A stretch of 47,382 nt of DNA from Subdoligranulum sp. APC924/74 (lineage in GTDB: Bacteria; Bacillota; Clostridia; Christensenellales; Borkfalkiaceae), in NCBI GenBank assembly GCA_963650905.1, contig CAVJNC010000001.1:1-47382 (forward strand), given 5' to 3'. Under the pieces are notes generated by a model. It worked only from the letters and a program-made list of their open reading frames with translations, did no database searches and was not told the DNA's origin. This document shows, piece by piece, positions 5,171-45,806 of this stretch; the stretch's first letter is position 1, and the number at the start of each line of letters is the position of its first letter. A program made the position numbers and the translations under genes.

Positions 5171-5269
5171 CGGTTTATTCGAGTTCGAACGCGCCGGCAT
5201 ATACGGTTTATTCGAGTTCGAACGCGCCGGCGTATACGGTTTATTCGAGTTCGAACGCGCCGGTGTATA
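5171..5269. repeat. 3 x 33-nt tandem repeat spanning the stop codon of the ABC gene
   Basis: The unit cggtttattcgagttcgaacgcgccggc[a/g/t]tata starts at 5171, 5204 and 5237. Copy 3 encodes the real C-terminus (...GAFELE*). Copies 1-2 are in-frame pseudo-C-termini that each carry their own stop. Confidence 0.9.
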
Positions 5270-16086: not shown

Positions 16087-16127
16087 TTGAAAACAGAAAT
16101 ATGCCGACGATTACGCGCGCGGAAAAA

Positions 16128-16219
16128 TCATTCCGCATAGACCGGATCGTCGGCTTTTTGTTTGCCGTCCGGATCATTCCGCATAGATCGGATCGTCGGT
16201 TTTTTGCTTGCCGTCCGGC
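16128..16219. repeat. 2 x 46-nt tandem duplication spanning the MATE stop codon
   Basis: Copies at 16128-16173 and 16174-16219 differ at about 4 positions. The second copy encodes the real C-terminus (...KQKTDDPIYAE*). Confidence 0.9.
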
Positions 16220-23665: not shown

Positions 23666-24199
23666 TTAAAAAGTGGGCGGAGTGGCTACCCATATGAATC
23701 TCGCCACTCTGTCGGTGTTGTTTTCTATATAATGTTCTTTGTTTGCCTGATAATAAAAACTTTCGCCTTTATTCGCTTTGTATTTTTTGTTGCCGAGATG
23801 AATCACGACCGCGCCCGAAAGGACGTAACCGAATTCCTCGCCCTCGTGCGGAACGTCCGGTTCGGTGCTTTTTTTCGGCATCAGATCGACAAGCACCGGC
23901 TCCATTTCGTTTTTCTGCGAATTGGGAACGAGCCAGTTGAGAGTGTATTGCGTCGTTTCCTTTTCGATGAATTCCTGCTCCCTGAAAACGATTTTTTCCT
24001 CGGGTTCTTCGCTGAAAAAATCTTTGAGGTTTGTGCCGAGCGCGGATAAAATATCCATAAGCGTGGCGATCGACGGGCTTGTGAGTTCGTTTTCGAGTTG
24101 ACTTATATAGCCCTTGGTGAGTTCGCATCTGTTCGCGAGTTCTTCCTGCGTGAGATCGCATTGCAATCGCAGTTGCTTGATTTTGTTACCGATTTCCAT
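23666..24199 (-). CDS. XRE-HTH plus cupin transcriptional regulator (PuuR-like)
   Basis: N-terminal LTQEELANRCELTKGYISQLENE. C-terminal cupin HEGEEFGYVLSGAVVIHLG. First gene upstream of potABCD. Confidence 0.8.
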   Translation of the reverse strand: MEIGNKIKQLRLQCDLTQEELANRCELTKGYISQLENELTSPSIATLMDILSALGTNLKDFFSEEPEEKIVFREQEFIEKETTQYTLNWLVPNSQKNEMEPVLVDLMPKKSTEPDVPHEGEEFGYVLSGAVVIHLGNKKYKANKGESFYYQANKEHYIENNTDRVARFIWVATPPTF

Positions 24200-24262
24200 A
24201 ATTTAACCCGTCCGTTTTCATAATTTAACCCGTCCGTTTCCGTATTTTAACCCGTCCGCAGC
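24197..24262. repeat. 3 x 22-nt tandem repeat spanning the start codon and ribosome-binding site of the XRE-cupin gene
   Basis: cataatttaacccgtccgttt[t/c] occurs at 24197 and 24219, with a diverged copy at 24241. The duplication creates a second upstream ATG (24219-24221) and an 11-codon uORF that overlaps the real start. Confidence 0.85.
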
Positions 24263-24465
24263 CGCGGATGCGGAAGCGATCGCCCGCGCCGTCGTTTCGT
24301 TCGTGCCGTCGTTCCGTCCGCGCCGTTTCGTCCGCGCCGTTCCGTTCACGCCGTTCCGTTTCGTCCGCGCCGGCGTTTCGTTTACGGCTACCATACTAAA
24401 CAAAAAGTTTAAAAAGGTTAGCAAATATAAACTTAAAGTTTAGCAAAAGTAAACGCAATGGTGGC

Positions 24466-24494
24466 ATTATATACGGAACGGCTCTTAATGTCAA
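24466..24494 (-). promoter_or_regulatory. Promoter of the XRE-cupin/pot operon
   Basis: Minus strand: TTGACA, 17 nt, TATAAT. It implies a leader of about 260 nt. Confidence 0.6.
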
Positions 24495-24707: not shown

Positions 24708-25466
24708 ATGAAAGAGAGAAAGAAGTATGCGACGACCGTTTTTGCGGGGATTCTGACGATAATTTTTTCGTCGGTAATCCTTTTTTCGAGCGGAAGTTAC
24801 GCCGTTTACACGGCGAACACGACCAGGCGGAAGTTGCCCGTGTACGGCGTAGGCCGCGACGACGGCGCGTTGTCGATTTCCTTCGATTGCGCGTGGGGAA
24901 CGGATTATACCGACAAAATTCTCGACGCGCTCGATTTTTATAACGTCAAAGCCACCTTTTTCGCGGTGCAGTTCTGGGCGGAAAAATATCCCGATTATCT
25001 TAAGAAAATAGTCGAAAGAGGTCACGAAGTAGGCACTCATTCCAAAACTCACCCGAAGATGTCGGAACTTTCGGCGGCGGAAATCGAAGAGGAACTGAAA
25101 AGTTCCGTCGCGGCGATAGAAAGCGTGACGGGGCAGAAAGTGAAACTGTTCCGCCCGCCGTTCGGCGATTATGACGACGACGTTATAACCGCCGCGGAAA
25201 AACTCGGGCTTTATACCATTCAGTGGAACGTCGACTCGCTGGACTGGAAAAACCTTTCCGCGGAACAGATCGCGGCGCGCGTTATAAAAAAAGCGGGTTC
25301 GGGTTCGATTATTCTGATGCACAACAACGGGCTTCACACGGCGGAATCGCTGCCGCTCATCTTCACCGCAACGCAACAAAAAGGACTCGTTTATCGACCT
25401 ATAAGCGAACTTATTTATACCGATGATTTCAGAATTACGCCAGACGGAACACAAATAAAAAACTGA
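24708..25466 (+). CDS. Polysaccharide deacetylase (NodB homology domain; PdaA/PdaB-like)
   Basis: SFDCAWG, HEVGTHSKTHP, LFRPPFG and IILMHN motifs, with an N-terminal TM/signal anchor. Confidence 0.8.
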   Translation: MKERKKYATTVFAGILTIIFSSVILFSSGSYAVYTANTTRRKLPVYGVGRDDGALSISFDCAWGTDYTDKILDALDFYNVKATFFAVQFWAEKYPDYLKKIVERGHEVGTHSKTHPKMSELSAAEIEEELKSSVAAIESVTGQKVKLFRPPFGDYDDDVITAAEKLGLYTIQWNVDSLDWKNLSAEQIAARVIKKAGSGSIILMHNNGLHTAESLPLIFTATQQKGLVYRPISELIYTDDFRITPDGTQIKN

Positions 25467-25480
25467 TTCGGAGAACAAAG

Positions 25481-26173
25481 ATGAACGTGGAAGAAAAACA
25501 AAACAACAAAGTATTTTTAAGCGGCGTGATAGTTGCCGAGGCAAAATTTTCGCACGAAGTTTACGGCGAGGGGTTTTATGAAACGGAAGTGAACGTGAAA
25601 AGGCTTTCGGGGCAGGCGGATATCATTCCCGTAACCATTTCGGAACGGCTTATCGAAAGCCATAACCTTTCGGTCGGCTCGGAGATCTGCGCGATCGGCC
25701 AGTTCAGAAGTTATAACAAACTCGTGGACGGAAAGAGCAAACTGATGCTCACCGTTTTCGTCCGCGAAATCGTCGGCGGCGACGGCGCGAGAAATCCCAA
25801 CAACATAGTCCTTTCCGGCTATATCTGCAAACCGCCCGTTTACAGAACCACGCCCTTCGCGAGGGAAATCGCAGACGTGCTTATCGCGGTGAACAGGGCG
25901 TATAACAAGTCCGATTACATTCCGTGCATCGCTTGGGGAAGAAACGCGAGATTCGTGAAAAATCTCGGCGTGGGCGAAAAGATCGCCGTTTCGGGGAGAA
26001 TCCAGAGCCGCGAATACGTGAAGAAAATTTCCGAAACGGAGAGCAGGACGATGACCGCTTACGAAGTTTCGATTTGCCGTCTCGCCGCTTACGAAAACGC
26101 GGATACGTTCGATCCCGAGGCGGAGTTCGATTCGAATTTCATTCCGTCCGCCGCGCTTGCGGATTCGGTGTGA
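25481..26173 (+). CDS. SSB-like protein with two tandem OB folds
   Basis: Two internally similar halves (VFLSG...GQFRSYN... and VLSGYI...SGRIQSREY), reminiscent of the SSB/PriB OB fold, with an acidic tail. Assigned by pattern only. Confidence 0.45.
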   Translation: MNVEEKQNNKVFLSGVIVAEAKFSHEVYGEGFYETEVNVKRLSGQADIIPVTISERLIESHNLSVGSEICAIGQFRSYNKLVDGKSKLMLTVFVREIVGGDGARNPNNIVLSGYICKPPVYRTTPFAREIADVLIAVNRAYNKSDYIPCIAWGRNARFVKNLGVGEKIAVSGRIQSREYVKKISETESRTMTAYEVSICRLAAYENADTFDPEAEFDSNFIPSAALADSV

Positions 26174-26328
26174 ACCCGCGGAACGAACAACGAGGGACGG
26201 TCGGTATTCCGCCGGACGGAAATCAGACGATCGACGACCGAGTCGGCTGCCGATGCCGGACAAGAATAAGACGTAAAACCGATAAAACACAAAACAAAAT
26301 ATTTCACAAATTTTTCATAATCCGGTTG

Positions 26329-26420
26329 TTGACTTTTATTTTAAAATGTGATAATTTGCAAGCAACGGTTTGAGACGCTCCCGTACGCAAAGGCTATCTG
26401 CGTGCGGGAGCGTCTTTTTT
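26329..26420 (+). promoter_or_regulatory. Module E1: promoter-like sequence plus conserved 5' tract plus 16-bp terminator-type hairpin, upstream of the ABC exporter
   Basis: TTGACT (26329-26334) and TGTGATAAT (26347-26355). CAACGGTTTGAG at 26363-26374. Stem 26374-26389 pairs with 26399-26414, loop AAGGCTATC, then TTTTTT at 26415-26420. Paralogous to 30001-30090. Confidence 0.6.
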
Positions 26421-26451
26421 ATTTATCACGAAAACAGGAGGCGTCGTTTTT

Positions 26452-28185
26452 ATGAGATCGATATTGCGTTTTTTAAAACCGCATTGGAAATTGTGCGTTA
26501 TCATAACTTTGCTTATGGTCGTTGAAACGGTCTGCGCGTTGCTTGTTCCGACATTTGCCGGCGAAATGCTCGATAAAGGTTCGTCGGCGGATACGAGTTT
26601 CGACGCGCTTGCGATAACCGGAATCAAAATGGCGGCCGTTTCTGTTTTAGCGGGGGCGGGCGGAATTGCAGGCGGGTATTCGTGCGCAAGGCTTGCCGCG
26701 GATATCGGCACGGATATAAGAGAAGAATTGTACAAAAAAACGCTGGATCTCTCCGTTTACGATTTCCGGACGTTCGGCGCGGCGTCCGTGACGACGCGTA
26801 CCGTTTCGGACGTAGCGAACGTTCAACTCGCGGTTGTCAATATCTTCCAACTTATATTGCCTGTCCCCGTTATTTTCGTCGCGGCGATAGCGTTGGCTTT
26901 TTCGACGGATCGGGTAATCGGTCTGATTTTATCGGGGTTTCTGATTCTTCCGATTATCTGCGCTCTGCTTATATTCAAAGGCGCGTCGCCGCTCTTTAAG
27001 AAACTGCAGAAACTTCTCGACAAGATGAGTACGATACTGCTCGAAAACATCTCGGGCGTGAGGGTTATCCGCGCGTTCAATAAAGAGGAATACGAAACGA
27101 AGCGACTGAACGCCGCGTTCGAGGGCTATAAAACGACGGCGGTAAAAGCCGACAGAATGTTCGCTTCGCTCGACGGACTGTCGTATTTTGCCGTCAATAT
27201 GTTCGCGGTGGTAATATATTGGATATGCGGCGCGAGGATTACCGTCGGCGCGTTTAAGTTCGGCGACGTAACCGCCGTAATCGAATACGCGATGCTTGCC
27301 TTGTACTATCTGATGATGGCGCAAATGCTCGTTTTAACGCTTCCGAGGGCTTTCGAATGCGCGAACCGCATAAACGCCGTTTTAAATTTTTCGCCCGAAA
27401 TCGCCGATAAAACGGACGAATACGTTCCGCTTGACGAAAATAAAGACGTCTTTACTTTTGAAAACGTCTCTTTCCGTTATGCCGACGCGGACGAATACAC
27501 GCTTAAAAATCTTAATTTTTCCTGCAAAAAAGGGACGGTTACGGGGATTATCGGCGGCACGGGGAGCGGGAAATCGACTATAGCGTCGCTTATGCTTCGG
27601 TTCAACGACGTTACTGAGGGCGCGATTAAACTGAACGGAACGGACATACGCGAAATGCCGCAGAAACAACTTCGGGATAACGCGGCGTGCGTCCGGCAAA
27701 ACGAGTGGTTGTTTTCGGGAACAATTGCCGAAAACCTTCGTTACGGAAACAAAAACGCTTCCGACGAGGAGTTATGGCGCGCTCTCGACATTGCGCAGGC
27801 AAGCGATTTCGTCCGCAATCTGCCCGATAAACTCGATTCTTTCGTGGCGCAGGGCGGCGCGAATTTTTCGGGCGGACAAAAACAACGCTTGTCCGTCGCC
27901 CGCGCTATCGTTAAAAATCCGCAGGTTTACGTATTCGACGACTGCTTTTCCGCGCTCGACGCCGAGACCGAGGCAGCCCTTCGCAAGGCGTTGCTCCGCG
28001 AAAAAGGCGACAAGACGATGATAATCATCGCGCAGAGAGTCGGTTCGATTAAAACCGCCGACCGCATTATCGTTCTGGACGACGGCAAGCCCGTCGGCAT
28101 AGGCGCGCACGAAGAATTGCTCGAAAATTGCAGGGTTTATCGGGAAATTTACGAATCTCAGACAAAGGCGGCGAGCGAAATATGA
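26452..28185 (+). CDS. Heterodimeric ABC exporter subunit (TMD-NBD), degenerate-site half
   Basis: Walker A GGTGSGKST, signature FSGGQKQR, Walker B VYVFDDCFSALD (Asp replaces the catalytic Glu). AGGAGG ribosome-binding site. Confidence 0.9.
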   Translation: MRSILRFLKPHWKLCVIITLLMVVETVCALLVPTFAGEMLDKGSSADTSFDALAITGIKMAAVSVLAGAGGIAGGYSCARLAADIGTDIREELYKKTLDLSVYDFRTFGAASVTTRTVSDVANVQLAVVNIFQLILPVPVIFVAAIALAFSTDRVIGLILSGFLILPIICALLIFKGASPLFKKLQKLLDKMSTILLENISGVRVIRAFNKEEYETKRLNAAFEGYKTTAVKADRMFASLDGLSYFAVNMFAVVIYWICGARITVGAFKFGDVTAVIEYAMLALYYLMMAQMLVLTLPRAFECANRINAVLNFSPEIADKTDEYVPLDENKDVFTFENVSFRYADADEYTLKNLNFSCKKGTVTGIIGGTGSGKSTIASLMLRFNDVTEGAIKLNGTDIREMPQKQLRDNAACVRQNEWLFSGTIAENLRYGNKNASDEELWRALDIAQASDFVRNLPDKLDSFVAQGGANFSGGQKQRLSVARAIVKNPQVYVFDDCFSALDAETEAALRKALLREKGDKTMIIIAQRVGSIKTADRIIVLDDGKPVGIGAHEELLENCRVYREIYESQTKAASEI

Positions 28186-29984
28186 TCAAACGTCAATCGG
28201 TAATGATAAAAGATGTTCCGAAAAACGCGTTCGAAACGGCAAAAAGATTGTTCAAAGAACTGAAAAACCAGAAATTCAGGTTGACGATAGTCATAATTTT
28301 CGTTGTGATTTCAACCGTTCTGAACGTTTTCACGCCTTATTACAGCGCGCGGATTATAGATTTGCTTTTCGATACCGTAAAAAGGTACGCGGCGGGCGGA
28401 ATTCCGTTTTCGATACAATGGAATCCTCTCGGAAAAGGACTGACCGCAATGACGGCTCTGTATCTTTCGGTTGCGATTCTGAATTATTTTCAGTCGTTGC
28501 TCATGGCGAGCGTCGCCGAAAAATTGATACTTACGCTGCGCGAGCAAATAAGCGCAAAGTTACATAAATTGCCGCTCGAATTTTACGATAACAACAAACG
28601 CGGGGAAATATTGTCCAAGGTGACGAACGACCTCGACAAAATTTCCGAAACTTTGCAGACGGGGTTGCTTAAATTCGTCGTTTCCATAGGTACGGTCGTC
28701 GGTTCGCTCGCGTTTATGTTTTATTTCAGTCCGTCGCTGACCATGATTTTCCTCGGGTTTGCCGCCGTGAGTTTTGTCGCGACGAAAATCGTCGCGAACA
28801 AAAACCTTGCGTTTTCGGCGGACAGACAGGAGAAAATCGCCGTTCTCACGGGAGTCGCCGAAGAGCAGTATACGGGGAGAGACGCGGTAAAAGCCTATAA
28901 CAATGAGAAAAACAGCGAAAAAATATTGAACGACGCCATAGAAGACGTTGCGAAAGCGAGCAAAAAAACGGACTTTCTTACTCATTGCGTAGATCCCGTG
29001 ATAACGTTGTTGTTGCGATTCGCTCAAGCGTGTATTTTGCTTATCGCTTGCCTGCGGATGATGAAAGGAGATATGTCGTTCGGCGTTGCGCAGGCTTATT
29101 TCCGGTACACGGGGCTTTGTTCCGATCCGTTGACGGAAGCCTCGTTTATGATAAACTCGTTGCAATCGGCGTTCGCGTCGGCGGAAAGAACGTTCGGATT
29201 TCTCGACGAACGCGAAGAAGTTCCCGACGTTGCTTTGCCGTTCATTCTGCACAGGGCGAGAGGTCTGATTTCGTTCAAAAACGTGAGTTTCGGCTACACG
29301 CCCGATAAAATTCTTATGAGAAACGTAAGTTTCACGGCGGAAGAAGGGCAGAAAATCGCGATAGTCGGTCCTACCGGCGCGGGCAAAACGACGCTCGTCA
29401 ATCTGCTCATGCGATTTTACGAGGCGAACGACGGGAAAATAAAGATAGACGGCGTTCTCGTCACCGACCTTACGAGGAAGAACCTGAGAAGCAATTTCGG
29501 CATGGTTTTGCAGGATACCTGGCTTTTCGGCGGAACGATAGCCGAAAATATCGCCTACGGGAAAGAAAACGCCACGCGTGAGGAAATAGAACGGGCGGCA
29601 AAAACGGCGGGAGCGGATTACTTTATCAGAACCCTGCCGCAAGGTTACGACACCGTTATCGGAAGCGACGCGGCGAATATGTCCGCAGGTCAACGCCAAC
29701 TTCTGACCATTGCGAGAGTGTTTCTGCGCGATCCGCCCGTTCTCATTCTCGACGAAGCGACTTCGAGCGTGGACACGCGCACGGAAGCGGAAATCGGCAA
29801 GGCGATGAAATCGCTTATGAGGGGCAGAACTTCTTTCGTTATCGCGCACCGCCTTTCCACCGTCCGCGACGCGGATAACATATTGTTTATGGAAAACGGA
29901 AACATTATCGAGCAGGGCAACCACGAGGCGTTGCTTAAAAAAGGCGGCGCTTACGCAAGGCTTTACAACAGTCAGTTTTTATAA
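28182..29984 (+). CDS. Heterodimeric ABC exporter subunit (TMD-NBD), consensus-site half
   Basis: Start at ATG 28182 (ATGA overlap with the upstream stop). Walker A GPTGAGKTT, degenerate signature MSAGQRQL, Walker B VLILDEATSSVD. Confidence 0.9.
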   Translation: MIKRQSVMIKDVPKNAFETAKRLFKELKNQKFRLTIVIIFVVISTVLNVFTPYYSARIIDLLFDTVKRYAAGGIPFSIQWNPLGKGLTAMTALYLSVAILNYFQSLLMASVAEKLILTLREQISAKLHKLPLEFYDNNKRGEILSKVTNDLDKISETLQTGLLKFVVSIGTVVGSLAFMFYFSPSLTMIFLGFAAVSFVATKIVANKNLAFSADRQEKIAVLTGVAEEQYTGRDAVKAYNNEKNSEKILNDAIEDVAKASKKTDFLTHCVDPVITLLLRFAQACILLIACLRMMKGDMSFGVAQAYFRYTGLCSDPLTEASFMINSLQSAFASAERTFGFLDEREEVPDVALPFILHRARGLISFKNVSFGYTPDKILMRNVSFTAEEGQKIAIVGPTGAGKTTLVNLLMRFYEANDGKIKIDGVLVTDLTRKNLRSNFGMVLQDTWLFGGTIAENIAYGKENATREEIERAAKTAGADYFIRTLPQGYDTVIGSDAANMSAGQRQLLTIARVFLRDPPVLILDEATSSVDTRTEAEIGKAMKSLMRGRTSFVIAHRLSTVRDADNILFMENGNIIEQGNHEALLKKGGAYARLYNSQFL

Positions 29985-30000
29985 AATCACGATTTATTCG

Positions 30001-30090
30001 TTGACGTTTATCTGAAAATACGATGGTTTATCGACAACGGTTTGAGACGCGTCCGTACACAAAGGCTATTTGTGTACGGACGCGTTTTTA
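30001..30090 (+). promoter_or_regulatory. Module E2: paralogue of E1, between the ABC exporter and the MATE gene
   Basis: TTGACG at 30001-30006. The -10 region is degenerate (TACGATGGT). CAACGGTTTGAG at 30035-30046. Stem 30046-30061 pairs with 30071-30086, loop AAGGCTATT, then a T-run reaching 30089. Confidence 0.6.
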
Positions 30091-30161
30091 TGTGGTTTTA
30101 ACAAGAAAATCCCCCGTTTCTGACGGGGCGGAAAAAATTCATCTCAAAAAGGAGCGTACCG

Positions 30162-43415: not shown

Positions 43416-43485
43416 ATTAAACGGTCGCCGCGCCGTCGCTTTCGGGCGATATTAAACGGTCGTCGCGTCGTCGCTTTCGGGCGGC
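43416..43485. repeat. 2 x 35-nt tandem duplication spanning the stop codon of the MATE gene 43452-44867
   Basis: attaaacggtcg[c/t]cgcg[c/t]cgtcgctttcgggcg occurs at 43416 and 43451. The second copy encodes ...ESDDATTV*. Confidence 0.9.
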
Positions 43486-44885: not shown

Positions 44886-45806
44886 TTATCTGTGATTTGT
44901 CGATTCGGGCAGAGTAAGCGTTTTGCCGTGATAGCGTTTCGTCGATTCGGGCAAGGTAAGCGTTTCGCTGTGATAGCGTTTCGTCGGTTCCGGCAATATA
45001 AATGTTTTGCCGTCGAGATAAAAAAGCGGGCTTTCTTTGCCGAACCCGAGTTCGGTTTTACACGCCGTGAGTGATTGCGTTTTTTCTTTAAATCGGCTGT
45101 TAATCGACTTATAGCCGTATTTTCCGTCTCCGATTAAGGGGTGACCGACATGCGCGAGGTGCGCGCGGATTTGGTGTGTTTTGCCGGTTACGAGTTCCAC
45201 GTTGAGTAAAGACGTTTCGCCGTCCTCGGACAAAACTTCGTAGCGGGTTATGATTTTAACCGCGCCATTTTTCGGCTCGTCGAAAATTTTCACTTCCGAT
45301 TTTTTTTCGTCTTTTAAAAGGTACGCTTCGAGCGTTCCTTTTTTTTCGTCGAACGTTCCGTAAACCCTCGCCAGATAGTATTTTTTGAACGTCCGGTTTT
45401 TAAAGCCTTTCAGCAGTTCGTCGTTCGCGGTCGGATTCAGGGCGAAGAGCATTATTCCGTCGGTGTTCCTGTCCAGCCGATGAACGAAAAACGCGGTCGG
45501 GTGAGTTTTCTTTATCAATTCGAAAAAATCTTCCGAAGTTATGCCTTTGGGCTTTACCGCGACGAGAATATTGTCGTCTTCGAAGAGGACGTTTTCCGCG
45601 CGGTTATCGTAAGCGGCGGTGTAAACGCTTATTTCGTCGCCTTTCGCAACGGCAACGTCTTTGTTCGTCCGCTCGCCGTTGATTTTCACGTCCTTCCGGC
45701 GGATCAACTTCATCGCGAGCGAATAGGACATCGCGCCGTTGAATCGGGCGAGAATCGCTTCTGAAAGTTTTTCGTTGCCGTCGGCCGTAAATTTTATCAG
45801 ATTCAT
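44886..45806 (-). CDS. RluA-family pseudouridine synthase with an N-terminal S4 domain
   Basis: S4-like MKLIRRKDVKINGERTNKDVAVAKGDEISV. Catalytic motif HRLDRNTDGIMLFA. TGKTHQIRAHL also present. Start at ATG 45806 (ATGA overlap with the feoB stop). Confidence 0.8.
   Translation of the reverse strand: MNLIKFTADGNEKLSEAILARFNGAMSYSLAMKLIRRKDVKINGERTNKDVAVAKGDEISVYTAAYDNRAENVLFEDDNILVAVKPKGITSEDFFELIKKTHPTAFFVHRLDRNTDGIMLFALNPTANDELLKGFKNRTFKKYYLARVYGTFDEKKGTLEAYLLKDEKKSEVKIFDEPKNGAVKIITRYEVLSEDGETSLLNVELVTGKTHQIRAHLAHVGHPLIGDGKYGYKSINSRFKEKTQSLTACKTELGFGKESPLFYLDGKTFILPEPTKRYHSETLTLPESTKRYHGKTLTLPESTNHR
44899..45017. repeat. About 2.8 x 42-nt in-frame tandem repeat inside the 3' end of the pseudouridine synthase gene
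   Basis: Copies at 44899-44940 and 44941-44982, with a diverged copy from 44983. The encoded C-terminus reads ...ILPEPTKRYHSETLTLPESTKRYHGKTLTLPESTNHR*. Confidence 0.9.

Follow-up and report, generated by a model that had tools for sequence, protein, structure and literature searches.

A conserved terminator-like hairpin with a possible embedded sensor precedes efflux pump genes of gut Clostridia and Negativicutes

Two related hairpin elements at an efflux locus

The 47,382-nt stretch of Subdoligranulum sp. APC924/74 analyzed here (GenBank contig CAVJNC010000001.1, positions 1 to 47,382; hereafter the window) contains three consecutive genes encoding the subunits A and B of an ABC exporter (ABC-A and ABC-B) and a MATE efflux transporter. 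Two copies of a short element, E1 upstream of ABC-A and E2 between ABC-B and the MATE gene, have the same direction as all three genes (Table 1). The nearest NCBIfam matches of the MATE protein are FepA and PRK09575, both below the curated cut-offs. Both elements and their homologues were characterized by sequence comparison throughout, and the conservation pattern obtained points to a candidate conditional terminator in front of the pump genes.

E1 (26328-26417) and E2 (30000-30089) constitute the top direct-repeat family of the window and are 77% identical over 90 nt without gaps. As stated in the original prediction, an earlier reading of the same DNA, the alignment runs from a TTGAC box through an identical tract into a hairpin and a T-run. 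The tract, CAACGGTTTGAG, has exact matches only at 26363 and 30035 in the window. All compensatory stem changes described earlier were present, namely T-A to G-C (columns 17/48), C-G to T-A (18/47), G-C to A-T (25/40) and U.G to U-A (22/43). The predicted folding energies of the corresponding 61-62-nt RNAs were -35.0 kcal/mol (E1) and -34.5 kcal/mol (E2), and comparison of the stability to that of shuffled sequences yielded z = -3.0 and z = -4.6, respectively. In both copies a stable G+C-rich hairpin is followed by a U-run on the transcribed strand, which makes both of them putative intrinsic terminators. A terminator scan flagged E2 with 20 pairs, while the 9-nt loop of E1 is beyond the loop limit of the scan. 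A loop of 9 nt had been proposed for both copies. This applies to E1, but in E2 and most homologues CAAA:UUUG pairing leaves a 5-nt loop, GGCUA. In E2, additional G.U and A-U pairs lengthen the hairpin into the T-run at 30085-30089. This hairpin is located 60 nt past the stop codon of ABC-B. The earlier suggestion that E2 may also terminate the ABC operon was supported.

Table 1. Features of the ABC-MATE efflux locus and its two elements.
Feature	Position	Strand	Basis
E1 putative promoter: -35 TTGACT 26329-26334, 17-nt spacer, TG extension 26349-26350, -10 TAATTT 26352-26357	26329-26357	+	Family geometry
E1 5' leader AACGGTTTGAGA, containing the family-invariant CGGTTTGA; predicted start of the transcript	26364-26375	+	Invariant alignment columns
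E1 putative terminator hairpin: 5' arm 26374-26391, loop region AAGGCTATC with invariant GGCTA 26392-26396, 3' arm 26397-26414	26374-26414	+	Folding and family covariation
E1 T-run TTTTTT, immediately 3' of the stem	26415-26420	+	Sequence; T-rich tails in all homologues
E1 post-terminator linker with Shine-Dalgarno sequence AGGAGG 26436-26441	26421-26451	+	Homology with the linker in the MATE leaders of relatives
ABC exporter subunit A, 577 aa, ABC_membrane and ABC_tran	26452-28185	+	Pfam; orthologues 68-79% identity
ABC exporter subunit B, 600 aa; start codon in ATGA overlap with the subunit A stop	28182-29984	+	
E2 decayed promoter: -35 TTGACG 30001-30006, CG for TG 30021-30022, TGGTTT for -10 30024-30029	30001-30029	+	Comparison with L063
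E2 leader AACGGTTTGAGA; every family-invariant position retained	30036-30047	+	
E2 putative terminator hairpin: core 30047-30085, 17 pairs, loop GGCTA 30064-30068	30044-30088	+	Terminator scan (20 pairs), folding
MATE efflux transporter, 445 aa	30162-31499	+	Pfam MatE; homologues of 60-88% identity all carry the element

Two smaller features occur next to the elements. A 17-codon GUG frame (26402-26455) begins in the 3' arm of E1, is preceded by AAGG in the loop and ends with a TGA overlapping the ATG of ABC-A (ATGA). As a leader open reading frame (ORF) it was rejected, since it is unconserved in the homologues and probably due to chance. Between E2 and the Shine-Dalgarno sequence (SD) of the MATE gene, an extra G+C-rich hairpin, CCCCGTTTCTGACGGGG, is located at 30112-30128 and followed by an A-run on the + strand. 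This hairpin is terminator-like on the - strand and absent from the MATE leaders of relatives.

An element family tied to exporter genes

Homologues were collected in two ways. A DNA-pattern scan of one genome per species, requiring exact AACGGTTTGA and CAAAGGCTAT, returned 26 stretches, about 17 of which are true copies with hairpin and T-run. These originate from Lachnospiraceae, Bianquea (Eubacteriales), Gallintestinimicrobium, Phascolarctobacterium (Negativicutes) and unnamed Clostridia metagenome-assembled genomes, although bin taxonomy is unreliable in several cases and the labels Bifidobacteriaceae, Parasutterella and Bacteroidales are doubtful. Ten stretches (L007-L010, L013, L020, L021, L025, L031 and L032; L numbers designate collected loci) are chance matches within coding sequence that have no hairpin. 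The second set, comprising 25 metagenome loci and five further protein look-ups, was fetched solely by similarity to the MATE protein and is independent of the DNA pattern. Wherever upstream DNA exists, all loci of this set carry the element, with the single exception of a copy disrupted by an insertion sequence (IS). The family comprises 44 distinct promoter-plus-element regions from gut Clostridia and Negativicutes. A covariance model built from 29 homologues found only E1 and E2 in the window, at 79.9 and 82.9 bits, respectively; E-values of this model are rough.

The first ORF downstream of the element nearly always encodes the same MATE subfamily with the N-terminus ..KDFxKYVSLxILGQxAxSCYTLADTFFVS... 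Exceptions are a different MATE type in Bianquea (L022) and ABC-A, which follows the element in the window (E1) and in L019 (79% identity). In L029, the element is cut off by a recombinase gene. The genes behind the element are MATE or ABC exporters. The check proposed along with the original prediction, a search for homologues and their neighbouring genes, thus yielded copies in dozens of loci that are tightly linked to transporters, so the prediction withstood the corresponding part of its own refutation test. The notion that the modules gate efflux genes was supported.

Several loci deviate in their surroundings. In L070 (1441-3000), an IS with HTH_Tnp_1 and rve transposase genes is inserted within the hairpin of the element, directly after GGCTACTTTG, and the remaining 3' arm, CTTTGTACGCGGGAGCGTTTTTT, is located with the MATE gene on the far side of the IS. 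The insertion may represent a natural terminator knockout that places the pump under IS-borne transcription. In L059-L062, the element and its MATE gene are part of a mobilisable element encoding an excisionase-like HTH_17 protein, a NikA-like protein and a relaxase, and are preceded by a second MATE gene, whose leader is different and longer and forms hairpins of its own. Three loci of Lachnospiraceae (L014, 4630-4690; L016; L023) have 5' untranslated regions (UTRs) of 110-430 nt. In these, a further long hairpin that is also conserved (AAAAGGCGTTTGGGGCTGCC...GGCAGTTCCAAACGCCTTT) lies upstream of the MATE start codon and downstream of the element; it is absent from the copies in the window.

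The promoter region displays a fixed geometry. In 32 of 38 distinct homologues a -35 box TTGnnn is followed by a 17-nt spacer and an extended -10 box TGnTAnnnT, and in 33 of the 38 the -10 box ends 7 or 8 nt before CGG, despite a mean pairwise identity of only 39% in the spacer. E1 has the corresponding sigma-A extended -10 pattern (TTGACT-17-TGaTAATTT). A simple sigma-70 scan of the window flagged neither E1 nor E2, and the promoter call for E1 is based on the comparative evidence. In E2, the sequence CGaTGGTTT takes the place of TGaTAATTT in E1 and of TGnTAnnnT in the family. With such a degenerate -10 box, E2 is probably not a working promoter module. The earlier description of both copies as promoter-plus-hairpin modules fits E1, but probably not E2, where just the -35 box is kept. 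Based on the fixed geometry, the transcript is predicted to start at an A located 1-2 nt before the invariant CGGUUUGA(A/G)ACGC, corresponding to approximately A26364 in E1.

In most loci the SD and the start codon of the pump gene are located 30-60 nt downstream of the U-run; in E1, the distance from the T-run to the ATG of ABC-A is 31 nt. Linkers of this length leave no room for another promoter, so expression of the pump would have to come from read-through. This bears on the possibility that the elements are stand-alone small RNA (sRNA) genes, the terminated transcript of about 55 nt acting in trans and the pumps being expressed from elsewhere. Such a role would fit the presence of a promoter and a terminator in the same module, and premature terminators before efflux genes have been proposed as sources of sRNAs (PMC13613805). 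However, orientation and position before the pump SD are fixed in essentially all loci, no alternative promoter fits into the linkers, and the SD linker would have moved along with the element to the ABC operon, as expected of a leader. In addition, a search of the window for trans targets complementary to loop or leader revealed none beyond chance. The original prediction had offered an sRNA or a factor-dependent attenuator; we kept the attenuator, since an sRNA gene is less economical with SD and start codon so close downstream, and consider it very improbable.

The predicted RNA consists of (A)ACGGUUUGA(A/G)ACGC, a stem of 17-20 pairs with the tip CAAAGGCUA(U), the 3' arm and the U-run. Among 37 distinct sequences, 92.3% of the stem cells are paired, and seven pairs display covariation with double changes in 38 cells, a value reached by none of 500 shuffles. 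Pairing drops to 27-61% in slid registers, and RNAalifold independently recovered the same stem. Columns 4-11, 13-15, 19-21 and 26-34 are invariant in the family alignment, columns 4-11 in both the 29- and the 37-sequence set, and C14 and G15 are fixed even where they are unpaired. The mean pairwise identity is 0.97 in the leader and 0.99 in the loop CAAAGGCUA, compared to 0.32-0.39 upstream (0.39 in the promoter spacer), 0.31 downstream of the terminator and 0.42 at the third codon positions of the MATE genes. As neutral sites are at 0.31-0.42, recent transfer cannot explain the identity of leader and loop. The element is under purifying selection, and the claim that selection acts on RNA structure plus loop sequence was thereby supported.

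The two arms of the stem are unequally constrained. Non-consensus cells number 37 in the 5' arm and 84 in the 3' arm, and stem mismatches were traced to the 3' arm 19 times and to the 5' arm twice. On the + strand, G.U pairs (25) outnumber A.C mismatches (14). The stronger constraint on the 5' arm indicates that this arm has a second job.

These data can be held against an explanation in which the conserved unit is a DNA operator, that is, an inverted repeat bound by a dimeric TetR/MarR-like repressor as a roadblock, the hairpin being incidental. An overlap with +1 to +50 is typical of efflux-pump operators, and the MATE protein resembles FepA, which in Listeria is under the control of a TetR-type repressor. 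However, the half-sites are unequally conserved, complementarity is maintained through strand-specific G.U pairs, a U-run always follows, the most conserved parts are the loop and the non-palindromic leader, and no linked repressor gene was found at the examined loci. We therefore regard an operator as highly improbable, more so than any other explanation considered here.

The same data bear on whether the element is regulated at all. The element might simply keep expression at a low level and end the upstream operon, as a leaky constitutive terminator, an insulator or a hairpin stabilising the 5' end, and owe its sequence identity to the horizontal spread of the cassette. The cassette is mobile, as illustrated by the relaxase context and the IS insertion, hairpin and U-run are strong, and after ABC-B the element is the only terminator-like structure in L002 and in the window (E2). 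Yet leader and loop are at 0.97-0.99, as opposed to nearly saturated flanks, spacer and third codon positions (0.31-0.42), a plain terminator could do without a fixed loop or 5' tail, and the asymmetry of the arms would be left unexplained. An unregulated element hence appears very unlikely.

A conditional terminator as working model

We propose, with a probability of roughly 0.6, that the element is a promoter-proximal, cis-acting conditional terminator with a sensor embedded in the terminator itself. An extended -10 promoter of the sigma-A type would fire just upstream of the invariant leader, and the polymerase would then make a 17-20-bp hairpin with the tip CAAAGGCUA and the U-run. By default, transcription would terminate after about 55 nt, leaving the pump gene OFF. 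In the ON state, the invariant stretch of about 35 nt formed by leader, 5' arm and loop would be captured in an alternative fold before the 3' arm is synthesized. The likeliest trigger would be a small ligand bound by a terminator-embedded aptamer, turning the element into an ON riboswitch, with a host factor as alternative. CGG and UUUG in the leader repeat segments of the 3' arm and may pair with CCG and CAAA of the 5' arm in competition with the 3' arm. This alternative pairing is complementary in 37 of 37 sequences with every position being invariant, and CCG and CAAA exactly enclose the four positions at which the 5' arm varies.

The conservation of loop and adjacent nucleotides beyond the need of termination, in the 5' UTR of a coherent group of genes, is what would be expected of a terminator-embedded riboswitch; according to the literature, such aptamers are marked by conservation of the terminator loop and of nucleotides 5' to the terminator. 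A ligand-sensing aptamer had not been considered in the original prediction and appears at least as likely as a protein factor. That the conditional terminator is a true small-molecule riboswitch is nevertheless a tentative assignment, to which we give somewhat less than even odds.

Several points weigh against this model. The alternative pairing has no covariation support, as all of its positions are invariant, and it is short (predicted at about -3 kcal/mol) and topologically strained, as no loop separates the two 5' strands. With about 35 nt, an aptamer would just reach the lower limit in size. E2 has retained all invariant positions though it is probably no longer 5'-terminal, so the device probably needs no 5'-end position. 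Finally, the exact pattern used for the DNA scan biased the sampling, and the invariance is tested independently by the protein-collected loci only; the sampled MATE proteins are all at least 60% identical.

A different partner for the 5' end was rejected: a helix between 5' CGGUUUG and a downstream CAAACCG occurs in a few copies from Lachnospiraceae, but was observed in only 7 of 45 cases family-wide, compared to 5.2 expected from shuffles. In L012, L014, L033, L034/L058 and L051, a CAAACCG, CAGACCG or CAAGCCG complementary to the 5'-terminal CGGUUUG occurs 5-15 nt past the U-run. A sequence of this type could clamp the ends of the read-through RNA.

Only about 10 nt precede the stem, which excludes a classical antiterminator, as had been noted earlier, and likewise a leader peptide. 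Neither an SD nor an AUG occurs between start and stem. UUG and GUG leader frames were also rejected, since they are unconserved in length and sequence and the stem changes hit codon positions 1 and 2. In Bacillus subtilis, bmrB-bmrCD is controlled by ribosome-mediated attenuation, which involves a translated leader peptide and alternative hairpins. The locus of the window shares with it a heterodimeric ABC multidrug exporter behind a promoter-proximal terminator. The analogy to BmrCD drawn in the original prediction fails, however: as compared to bmrB-bmrCD, and likewise to ermC, the element has no SD/AUG in the short segment before the stem, and orthologous ABC operons are under a divergent MerR/GyrI-like regulator with a 19-bp-spacer promoter.

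The sensor might also reside outside the RNA. If the attenuator depended on a protein or another factor, leader and loop would be recognised in trans by an RNA-binding protein or by a specialised elongation factor common to these Firmicutes, which would suppress or enforce termination, and the RNA itself would sense no small ligand. This would explain the same conservation pattern and is in line with the idea put forward earlier. For an aptamer the RNA is very short, and a long perfect stem with a conserved loop is typical of protein sites; PBC motifs have been discussed in the literature (PMC8632094). However, neighbouring genes vary between loci, and no regulator gene is conserved beside the element in more than 20 genomic contexts, including the relaxase-bearing mobilisable element. 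Since the cassette is found in both Clostridia and Negativicutes, and thus in no fewer than two classes, the factor would need to be universal, and there was no match to known protein-binding leaders in Rfam. Since no regulator travels with the element in these many contexts and two classes, a sensor intrinsic to the RNA or a universal factor is favoured, and attenuation by a protein or factor is in our view unlikely, if the best of the alternatives to the embedded sensor. CcpA (cre), CsrA, PyrR, RAT and ANTAR-like sites were compared by eye only, and none fits.

Database searches did not assign the element to a described family. A search of the whole window against Rfam 15 at gathering thresholds resulted in zero matches, and the E-value mode (up to E = 10) applied to E2 and L014 yielded hairpin artefacts only (miRNA precursors; BTnc201, E = 0.16; trpB, E = 0.51). 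No match was obtained in plasmid and phage collections (blastn, 55-nt consensus) or in IMG/VR (pattern). A full-text literature search for sequence strings of the element returned coincidental matches only; supplementary alignments of motif screens may still list it. The similarity to the 3' end of a Cas13d direct repeat, GGUUUGAAAC, is regarded as chance, as the stem of the repeat is absent and position 12 varies between A and G. A search for MATE-linked motifs in the motif papers of Breaker and Weinberg brought up guanidine-IV and Gd4v only.

Among known systems, the HMP-PP riboswitch (thiS motif) is similarly compact (about 50 nt) and would also pass for a plain terminator, were it not for the abnormal conservation of its loop and the conservation of nucleotides on the 5' side of the stem. 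This ON switch decides within a few nucleotides of transcription, and its alternative fold in the ON state involves the 5' segment together with the lower left stem (Atilho et al. 2019, PMC6478431). In contrast, the element has no sequence similarity to thiS and no Rfam match, precedes efflux pumps instead of thiamin genes, and has an alternative fold without covariation support. Guanidine-IV, which often precedes mepA/MATE genes (PMC6478431; bioRxiv 10.1101/2020.10.21.349134; PMC8632094), and Gd4v likewise employ a conserved-loop terminator hairpin as ON switch upstream of MepA/MATE-type exporters. Both need a separate upstream P1 hairpin and pairing of its loop with that of the terminator in a pseudoknot or kissing interaction, and the Gd4v variant is enriched in gut metagenomes and still an orphan, as is the element (bioRxiv 10.1101/2020.10.21.349134; PMC7736828; PMC9788692). 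The element differs in the lack of P1, with about 10 single-stranded nt before the stem and a promoter with unconserved spacer further upstream. It also differs in having no Rfam-level similarity, although it is unconfirmed that Rfam 15 holds the guanidine-IV family. Judged from these comparisons, the element resembles terminator-embedded ON riboswitches but appears to belong to none of the known families compared.

In a more speculative extension, the element might be an orphan riboswitch class among the smallest known, with the aptamer beginning at +1 and lying within its own terminator as part of a portable promoter-sensor-SD cassette. It could then sense a toxic metabolite or xenobiotic common in the vertebrate gut and switch on the exporter. 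The cassette might have taken over other pumps, namely the ABC exporter here and in L019 and the second MATE type in Bianquea, and the two serial copies in this genome would possibly act as a double gate. We put less than even odds on this extension.

Control of the ABC operon in this genome and implications

Orthologues of ABC-A in L001, L002, L005 and L063 (68-76% identity) have no element upstream. Instead, a divergent MerR+GyrI-like gene precedes the ABC operon in all four, and the ABC promoter, TTGACTGTATAG..-TA(C/T)AAT with a 19-bp palindromic spacer (TTGACTGTATAGTTGCTACACAGTATACAAT), is of the typical MerR type. In L002 and L063, the element occurs between ABC-B and the MATE gene only; L001 and L005 have no MATE gene downstream. 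The target operon is thus the same as in the MerR/BmrR-type activation of these relatives, but the regulator gene and its promoter are absent from the locus in the window, where E1 is located as a putative RNA-level device. A search of the 47-kb window for MerR homologues found none.

The promoter of E1, TTGACTTTTATTTTAAAATGTGATAAT, is near-identical to the MATE promoter TTGACTTTTATTTTAGAATATGATAGTAT of L063, the closest relative with both operons. A linker, TTATC.C.AAAACAGGAG, is common to E1, to the MATE leaders of L063 and L064 and to the ABC leader of L019. E2 retains the upstream flank of the MATE copy, TTATTCGTTGAC, and differs in the linker. At the position equivalent to the E2 promoter, L063 has an intact TTGACT-17-TGaTAGTAT. 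We infer from this pattern that the element originally belonged to the MATE gene and that E1 is a secondary copy. In the simplest history, a duplicate of the whole MATE promoter-leader-SD unit would have been placed ahead of ABC-A, the locus would have lost the MerR gene along with its promoter, with E1 taking over their control, and the promoter of E2 would have decayed thereafter. E2 probably acts as terminator of the ABC operon and as operon-internal gate for read-through into the MATE gene. L019 has the same junction of element and ABC-A, indicating that the rewiring predates this genome. On the 2436-nt contig of L019, the element is located directly after an ABC-B stop codon and before ABC-A. 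This arrangement is due to a tandem ABC operon or else to an assembly that ran through two element copies in a layout like that of the window.

Some features elsewhere in the window may be recorded. An ORF with an SSB domain upstream of E1 (25481-26173) has about 100 residues in front of the domain (Pfam match at residues 107-190), and either the annotated start is too early or the N-terminal extension is unusual. The intergenic region 24193-24494 is dense in short tandem repeats with periods of 22, 14-17/33 and 22 and is flanked by a gene for an HTH-cupin regulator (23666-24199, - strand) and one for a polysaccharide deacetylase (24708-25466, + strand). A perfect consensus promoter, TTGACA-17-TATAAT, occurs on the - strand at 24494-24466. 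Further tandem repeats with units of 23-46 nt in 2-3 copies (83-96% identity) are located at 2918-2990, 5171-5269, 16127-16218, 43416-43483 and 44899-45013.

If true, the proposed model would add to a very small set of terminator-embedded regulators, which are easily overlooked as ordinary terminators. A self-contained ON switch of 55 nt would serve as a synthetic-biology part for anaerobes. The window would represent a clean natural example of rewiring, in which a copied RNA leader took the place of a protein-based MerR-type drug sensor at an ABC exporter, followed by loss of the donor promoter. If the element is a sensor, it would mark an unknown compound that many gut Clostridia and Negativicutes must expel, and a large MATE family otherwise annotated merely as 'multidrug' efflux would obtain a physiological substrate.

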